DNA of 346 nt from Escherichia coli (GTDB taxonomy: Bacteria > Pseudomonadota > Gammaproteobacteria > Enterobacterales > Enterobacteriaceae). The stretch lies in NCBI RefSeq assembly GCF_003334335.1, contig NZ_QOWQ01000211.1, one strand, 5' to 3'. Shown here one piece after another: positions 285 to 346 of the stretch (the stretch's first letter is position 1; the number at the start of each line of letters is the position of its first letter). The position numbers and the translations under genes are program-made. The notes under the pieces were generated by a model. The model made no database searches, was not told the origin of the DNA, and saw only the letters and a list, made by a program, of their open reading frames with translations.

Positions 285-346
285 AGAGCATGATACTTGT
301 GGTTGATAGTTATTTTTATCCGGCGACAAAGATATTGAGATGAGGG

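Follow-up and report, generated by a model that had tools for sequence, protein, structure and literature searches.

The 17-codon reading frame at the right end of the window (by which we mean the whole 346-nucleotide stretch of Escherichia coli DNA analysed here) is most probably a chance ORF in a mosaic spacer, with no coding or leader function, and the functional content of the non-coding part of the window is most likely, judging from its sequence, a stack of three minus-strand hairpins followed by T-runs. The spacer appears to be a non-coding, recombination-mosaic segment of lambdoid E. coli prophages that joins the last tail gene, tfa, to the 'moron' gene eib, whose product is an EibA-type immunoglobulin-binding trimeric autotransporter. 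We draw these readings from what was observed of the surrounding genes, of the frequency with which chance yields such an ORF, of the sequence downstream of the ORF, where no fixed structure is present, and of the hairpins, which favour one strand and keep their stems. The features discussed below are as follows, in window coordinates.

1 to 127, plus strand: 3' end of the prophage tail-fibre assembly gene tfa (DUF4376; orf-191A of P-EibA), from the ORF list, RefSeq locus L001 and GenBank AF151091.
138 to 157, minus strand: hairpin 1, AGGGGC / GCCCCT, followed by CTCTTTTTTA (137-128), from pattern scans and the equivalent site in locus L003.
220 to 241, minus strand: hairpin 2, AAGGAGGC / GCCTCCTT, followed by AAATTTTTAT (219-210), from pattern scans.
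258 to 284, minus strand: hairpin 3 (stem A), whose arms 265-271 and 278-284 enclose the loop 272-277, with T7 (264-258) after it, from a pattern scan of L003 and RNA folds of both alleles.
274 to 292, plus strand: stem B of the first-pass annotation, 274-280 paired with 286-292, from RNA folds of both alleles and pair probabilities.
289 to 345, no strand assigned: near-invariant island with one segregating site, from per-column diversity and haplogroup combinations.
290 to 343, plus strand: candidate 17-codon ORF MILVVDSYFYPATKILR, judged a chance ORF from shuffles, Shine-Dalgarno (SD) energy, copy alignment and family searches.

The window is 99.7% identical to a locus on the chromosome of E. 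coli JNEC-KY176 (L001). It was found in 27 of 5,426 complete E. coli genomes, always on the chromosome and with a median of three copies per genome; in a search of plasmids, matches were confined to the coding part of tfa. It consists of the last 127 bases of tfa and the first ~220 bases, the tfa-proximal third, of a spacer of 681-797 nt. At L001 RefSeq annotates tfa as CDS 5549-6127, and in this lambdoid prophage the DUF4376 gene is preceded by gene J and the genes for the tail fibre. Its stop codon, TGA at window 125-127, is directly followed by TAA at 128-130. The next plus-strand gene encodes a YadA-C-terminal adhesin (eib) and starts at 6809, 466 nt past the stop of the ORF; a small hypothetical gene and an S6-family autotransporter gene come after it. 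RefSeq places no annotated feature within the tfa-eib spacer, and no tRNA or tmRNA gene was found in the window.

The same arrangement (orf-191A, eibA, orf-156A, orf-60A, eaaA) is present in prophage P-EibA of strain ECOR-9, and tfa followed by eib was also seen in eight phage records. The P-EibA spacer belongs to the same locus type, with the gene order tfa - spacer - eib - orf156 - orf60 - eaa in common: the entire window aligns with it at 85% identity, with no difference in the ORF region. The window differs from P-EibA in carrying the other haplogroup of the tfa-proximal block (the two are ~81% identical) and in having A281. The stretch of the P-EibA record that was retrieved annotates a single stem-loop in the spacer, near eibA, and leaves the ORF unannotated. 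For locus naming, we take AF151091 to be the P-EibA sequence of ECOR-9 that is attributed to Sandt and Hill, 2000; the original eib papers are reportedly those of Sandt and Hill (2000) and of Sandt, Hopper and Hill (2002). When P-EibA-type and P-EibC-type loci were compared, their tfa genes were 95% identical up to about window 99 and completely divergent beyond it, which puts the eib module's apparent mosaic boundary within the final ~9 codons of tfa and not in the spacer.

Direct reading of the sequence confirmed how the first-pass annotation had described the frame. It has 17 sense codons, ATG (290-292) ATA CTT GTG GTT GAT AGT TAT TTT TAT CCG GCG ACA AAG ATA TTG AGA, and ends at TGA (341-343), and the purine stretch GAGAG (284-288) is separated from the ATG by the single base C289. 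A GTG start at 275 in the ORF list gives a 22-codon extended form of the same frame. GAGAG had been considered too close to the ATG to serve as a good SD sequence, and the predicted energies agree, since the 20 nt preceding ATG 290 form an anti-SD duplex of only -3.0 kcal/mol, compared with -7.4 kcal/mol for the neighbouring tfa, and do not amount to a functional ribosome-binding site. For comparison with chance, the non-coding part of the window (128-346) was shuffled 2000 times with its dinucleotide counts preserved. At least one plus-strand ATG ORF of at least 17 codons appeared in 54% of the shuffles (mean, 0.68 such ORFs per shuffle), and 78% contained one when either strand was counted. 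Because an equal or longer ORF arises in 54% of the shuffles and the SD is weak, the ORF needs no special explanation. Family searches were run with the 22-codon GTG form, because the 17-residue peptide falls under the 20-residue minimum, and gave no match in NCBIfam or PHROGs.

The TGA of the candidate lies in an ATGA (340-343), where it overlaps the ATG of a second small ORF. This second ORF is 31 aa long in the short form of the spacer and 16 aa in the long form, and is not conserved.

We collected 69 copies as blast matches to the non-coding 3' part of the window (one match per copy), 67 of which span the ORF fully. They come from E. coli genome loci, phage records, IMG/VR contigs and 46 metagenome contigs, the last found with an anchor outside the ORF. 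The ORF was intact in all 67 full copies, and its sole variable site was G322A (CCG to CCA) in 2 copies. This change is synonymous in the frame of the ORF and also in one minus-strand frame, and a single site carries no statistical weight. Disruption of the frame in close relatives had been proposed as the observation that would speak against it; the frame was never broken, but with one polymorphic site the comparison does not discriminate, and the conservation of the frame is therefore uninformative on coding. Two scans of 100,044 species-representative genomes failed to find the ORF, even when every third codon position was left free, and no relatives turned up beyond the eib prophages of E. 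coli. In viral contigs, the ORF pattern was found in 10 contigs and the anchor outside the ORF in 8 stretches, nearly all on the same contigs, and all of these matches carry essentially the same ORF. The metagenome scan anchored outside the ORF added the 46 further copies, in which the ORF was again invariant.

Within the tfa-proximal half of the spacer, the ORF occupies the 57 nt that vary least. This island lies between two variable blocks, 101-265 and 346-452, with a flanking nucleotide diversity (pi) of 0.04-0.12; to its left the copies fall into two haplogroups that are ~81% identical. We considered the conservation of the island as a sign of function and rejected it, because the eib-proximal half of the spacer is as conserved as the island and the flanking variable blocks recombine freely. 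Left and right haplogroups of these blocks were found in all four combinations. From the equal conservation of the eib-proximal half and the four block combinations, the island is best read as shared backbone, or a recombination junction, of a mosaic region, and its invariance would not reflect selection on the peptide. Since the ORF is intact in every copy, it may nevertheless be a very young, lineage-restricted micropeptide, with which the sequence is compatible. We give a slim chance to this and one other alternative taken together, the other being a minus-strand small RNA made of the island and the hairpin at 284-258 and confined to prophages with EibA-type eib genes.

To the right of the island the copies differ in length as well as in content. 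The stretch that corresponds to window 346-452 is 47, 109 or 223-224 nt long, depending on the copy, and at least four forms of three lengths follow the stop of the ORF, with indels of ~62, 115 and 177 nt. The difference between forms starts no more than ~10 nt past the stop codon, so that there is no fixed structure 3' of the ORF.

Several details of these length forms were also recorded. The ~115-nt indel, directly past window ~354 (L003 4355-4471; alignment columns 355-471), is present in ~60% of the copies in two divergent variants, one of which has its own minus-strand terminator-like hairpin that is destroyed in the other. In one metagenome copy (L055), a deletion of 177 nt runs between two occurrences of the 16-mer ATACAGAATTTTCGTA. 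When this 16-mer was used as a probe, the matches beyond the known eib contigs were single, lay on contigs without matches to other probes and were judged to be due to chance. The idea of a duplicated module or gene was dropped, because the similarity found by self-comparison is limited to one 16-mer and one 14-mer. Two loci (L009 and L010; alignment columns 591-601, window-equivalent ~467) carry an 11-nt tandem duplication, TTCAATGGTCA, a non-triplet indel that is consistent with non-coding sequence.

The ATG had been described as paired within stem B (274-292). RNA folding of the window sequence supports this, in that A290, U291 and G292 are predicted to be paired with a probability of at least 0.997. 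The pairing holds, however, for a minority allele only. A281, the allele of the window type, occurs in 11 of the 56 aligned copies, and the majority allele is C281. On the plus strand, the C281 allele folds into stem A (265-284), at -13.5 kcal/mol compared with -9.4 kcal/mol for stem B, and pairing of the ATG bases becomes less probable, at 0.3-0.6. The two stems are mutually exclusive; stem B overlaps the 3' arm of hairpin 3 (stem A) and ends in the ATG. C281A weakens hairpin 3 by breaking a G-C pair, so that the alternative stem at 274-292 is predicted to win and the ATG to be buried in the window. On these folds, the apparent burial of the ATG is an allele-specific side effect of one polymorphism.

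The first-pass annotation had left two readings side by side, namely that the ORF is the leader peptide of a gene further to the right, outside the window, or that it arose by chance. In the first of these, the ORF would be a leader peptide or regulatory upstream ORF, lying on a long 5' leader of eib or on a read-through late transcript, and would control eib. Extended to the right, as had been proposed, the locus does offer a plus-strand gene, eib, and this check does not refute the leader reading. The ORF is intact in 67 of 67 full copies, and the mutually exclusive stems 265-284 and 274-292 overlap its start codon. Eib expression is strongly condition-dependent, too: Eib is strongly up-regulated in static, stationary-phase culture in complex medium, and its regulation, which has been called highly complex, is described as unresolved (PMC5450701). 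That paper mentions no promoter, upstream region or transcript, and a second paper on Eib expression likewise mentions no promoter, upstream region or leader.

The structure expected of such a leader was not found, however. No plus-strand terminator or antiterminator overlaps the ORF or comes directly after it, and pattern scans of L001 and L003 found no plus-strand terminator-like site between the ORF and eib. Stems A and B do lie at the 5' end of the ORF, but on the plus strand the homopolymer run precedes stem A instead of following it. Between the ORF and eib lie 466 nt in L001 and, in the other length forms, ~400 to 580 nt, with eib ~115 nt further from the ORF in the longer ones, and what comes right after the stop codon is conserved in neither length nor content. 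The sole plus-strand promoter-like site, a consensus match only, lies 18-46 nt before the ATG of eib, and if used would leave the ORF outside the eib mRNA. In P-EibC and phage GER2, which carry other types of eib, the tfa-proximal part of the spacer is unrelated and contains no homologue of the ORF. Transcription-attenuation leader peptides are known from enterobacterial amino-acid operons (the trpL, hisL, pheL and ivbL type). The candidate resembles them in being a short ORF upstream of a gene on the same strand, with mutually exclusive hairpins near its 5' end. Unlike them, it lacks tandem regulatory codons and is not followed by a terminator on its own strand; its SD is weak, and its would-be target is 400-580 nt off across sequence of variable length. 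The remark that VV and YFY make no clear attenuator signature was borne out, as VV is the sole adjacent repeat, YFY is mixed and there is no run of regulatory codons. Given that a plus-strand terminator is missing and the length after the stop is variable, a leader-peptide attenuator is unsupported, and we consider control of eib by this ORF to be very unlikely. Between the two earlier readings, then, the chance ORF agrees with a length typical of shuffles, a weak SD and the empty family searches, and the leader peptide is unsupported, given the missing attenuator and the distant, variable link to eib.

The hairpins of the spacer gave a different picture. Pattern scans called 2 terminator-like sites in the window, where 0.2 +/- 0.4 were expected from shuffles, and 5 calls representing 4 distinct sites in the long-form locus L003, where 0.9 +/- 1.1 were expected. 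Every terminator-like site in the spacer is on the minus strand, facing the eib side. The sites at 138-157 and 220-241, and the site at 265-284 in the C281 allele, have the GC-rich hairpin and the directly following U-tract of a minus-strand intrinsic terminator. The T-run of hairpin 1 overlaps the stop codons of tfa. The stem of this hairpin is identical in both ~81%-identical haplogroups, whereas its loop differs in sequence and in length (8 vs 6 nt). Likewise, the core stem of hairpin 2, AAGGAG/CTCCTT, is present in both haplogroups while the loop sequence diverges. Hairpin 3 was called in the C281 allele of L003, with 8 pairs followed by TTTTTT; in the window and in L001 the A281 mismatch kept it from being called. 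In the majority allele it is a clean GC-rich stem of 6-8 bp, with a minus-strand energy of -11.6 kcal/mol compared with -6.0 kcal/mol for the allele of the window; in the commonest allele 2 nt separate the hairpin from its T-run. A281 breaks one G-C pair of the hairpin without compensation (11 of 56 copies).

Intrinsic (Rho-independent) terminators are found beside phage morons and where late operons end. The hairpins of the spacer resemble them in their GC-rich stems of 6-8 bp, loops of 6-8 nt and T-runs and in their position beside a moron gene, and differ from moron-flanking terminators in their orientation, since each one faces the minus strand and is opposed to the annotated genes around it, all of which run the other way. 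The hairpins at 138-157, 220-241 and 265-284 would stop RNA polymerase that moves leftwards and approaches the tail genes from the side of eib. We infer both that leftward transcription terminates there, before the tail genes, and which transcript would be affected. No minus-strand gene is annotated to the right of the window in the JNEC-KY176 locus, in AF151091 or in the phage records, no mapped promoter is known there on that strand, and the sole minus-strand promoter-like site in L001 (TAGTCA-17-AATAAT, 6544-6516) is within chance expectation. The uncompensated mismatch in hairpin 3, the 2 nt that part it from its T-run in the commonest allele, and the loss of a fourth hairpin in one of the two variants of the ~115-nt insert also speak against functional terminators.

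The island and hairpin 3 could instead form the 3' part of an unannotated prophage small RNA of ~100-250 nt that ends at 264-258, and the plus-strand ORF would then be a mere antisense shadow of this RNA. On the minus strand, a GC-rich hairpin and a run of six to seven T residues do come directly after the invariant 57-nt block, and the enrichment of minus-strand terminators over shuffles fits such an RNA as well. In the long spacer forms the 16-mer ATACAGAATTTTCGTA (given as the plus strand) recurs upstream of both terminator-like hairpins, which suggests a repeated unit, but the likeness of the two 'units' goes no further than the 16-mer and a 14-mer. The minus-strand sequence upstream of the island, where such an RNA would begin, is wholly different between the forms with and without the insert, and no promoter-like site lies at a suitable distance. 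The stem carries the uncompensated mismatch in 11 of 56 copies, compensatory changes were not seen, and the z-score of the minus-strand fold, -1.8, is unremarkable. The window (E up to 10) was searched against Rfam 15 together with two full loci (limit E 1), and the highest-ranking hits, to snoRNA and plastid models at E 0.98-9.4, lay far under their gathering scores. We therefore regard the small RNA as unlikely. If it were real, it might act on eib or on host transcripts, and it would be one more member of the known class of prophage small RNAs.

That the minus strand encodes a small protein, for example a hydrophobic peptide resembling a type I toxin, seems extremely improbable to us, although it does hold reading frames that overlap the 17-codon candidate. 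One is a 31-aa ORF, (M)FYLLSFYAAILLLIKKHHYPRPHLNIFVAG, which ends at window 318-316, is hydrophobic in its N-terminal half and has basic residues after it; one phage record annotates a 49-aa minus-strand CDS with the same stop. Only the last ~12 codons of the ORFs that end at 318-316 are common to the spacer forms, however, and their N-terminal parts are unrelated, hydrophobic in the 31-aa form and hydrophilic in the 49-aa form. Another is an 84-aa ORF across window 346-218, which runs through two terminator-like hairpins and is interrupted by a stop in the L003-type allele. Indels of 2 nt and 11 nt occur in the region, and RefSeq annotates no CDS in the spacer. When ten spacer ORFs of both strands were searched against NCBIfam and PHROGs (E up to 1), nothing beyond chance was found; the one chance-level PHROGs match, at E 0.25, concerned an unrelated ORF in the eib-proximal part of the spacer. 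None of the NCBIfam type I toxin families (Hok, Ldr, Ibs, ShoB, TisB and others) was matched, and the minus-strand ORFs differ between spacer forms.

The finding is an ordinary one. It removes a candidate leader peptide from a spacer that had already been sequenced but not annotated, upstream of the eibA-type genes for immunoglobulin-binding adhesins. Of modest value are the strong response of Eib to growth conditions (PMC5450701) and, in the spacer, the one-sided stack of leftward terminator-like hairpins and the mosaic build, which are to be considered when the promoter and leader of eib are mapped.

Closer to eib, some other elements were observed. A 25-codon plus-strand ORF, MRAARYQIFFIYPMLNCFICIQIIL, at L001 6721-6798 ends 11 nt before the ATG of eib (6809) and is, by its position, a better candidate for an upstream ORF than the 17-codon frame. 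P-EibC (L024 918-956) has a shorter ORF at the same place, whose tail …ICIQII matches the …ICIQIIL of the 25-codon ORF, and the sole plus-strand promoter-like site lies within the 25-codon ORF. An inverted repeat, ATTGTGCT-N14-AGCACAAT, at L001 6485-6520 is invariant in 13 of 13 aligned loci and lies directly downstream, on the minus strand, of the sole minus-strand promoter-like site; it is operator-like in form only. About 100 nt upstream of eib, at L001 6668-6705 (AF151091 3777-3814), there is a long, AT-rich and near-perfect hairpin, GGAAATTCCGAA … TTCGGAATTTCT, which is the stem_loop of the P-EibA GenBank record and could be a protein-binding palindrome.
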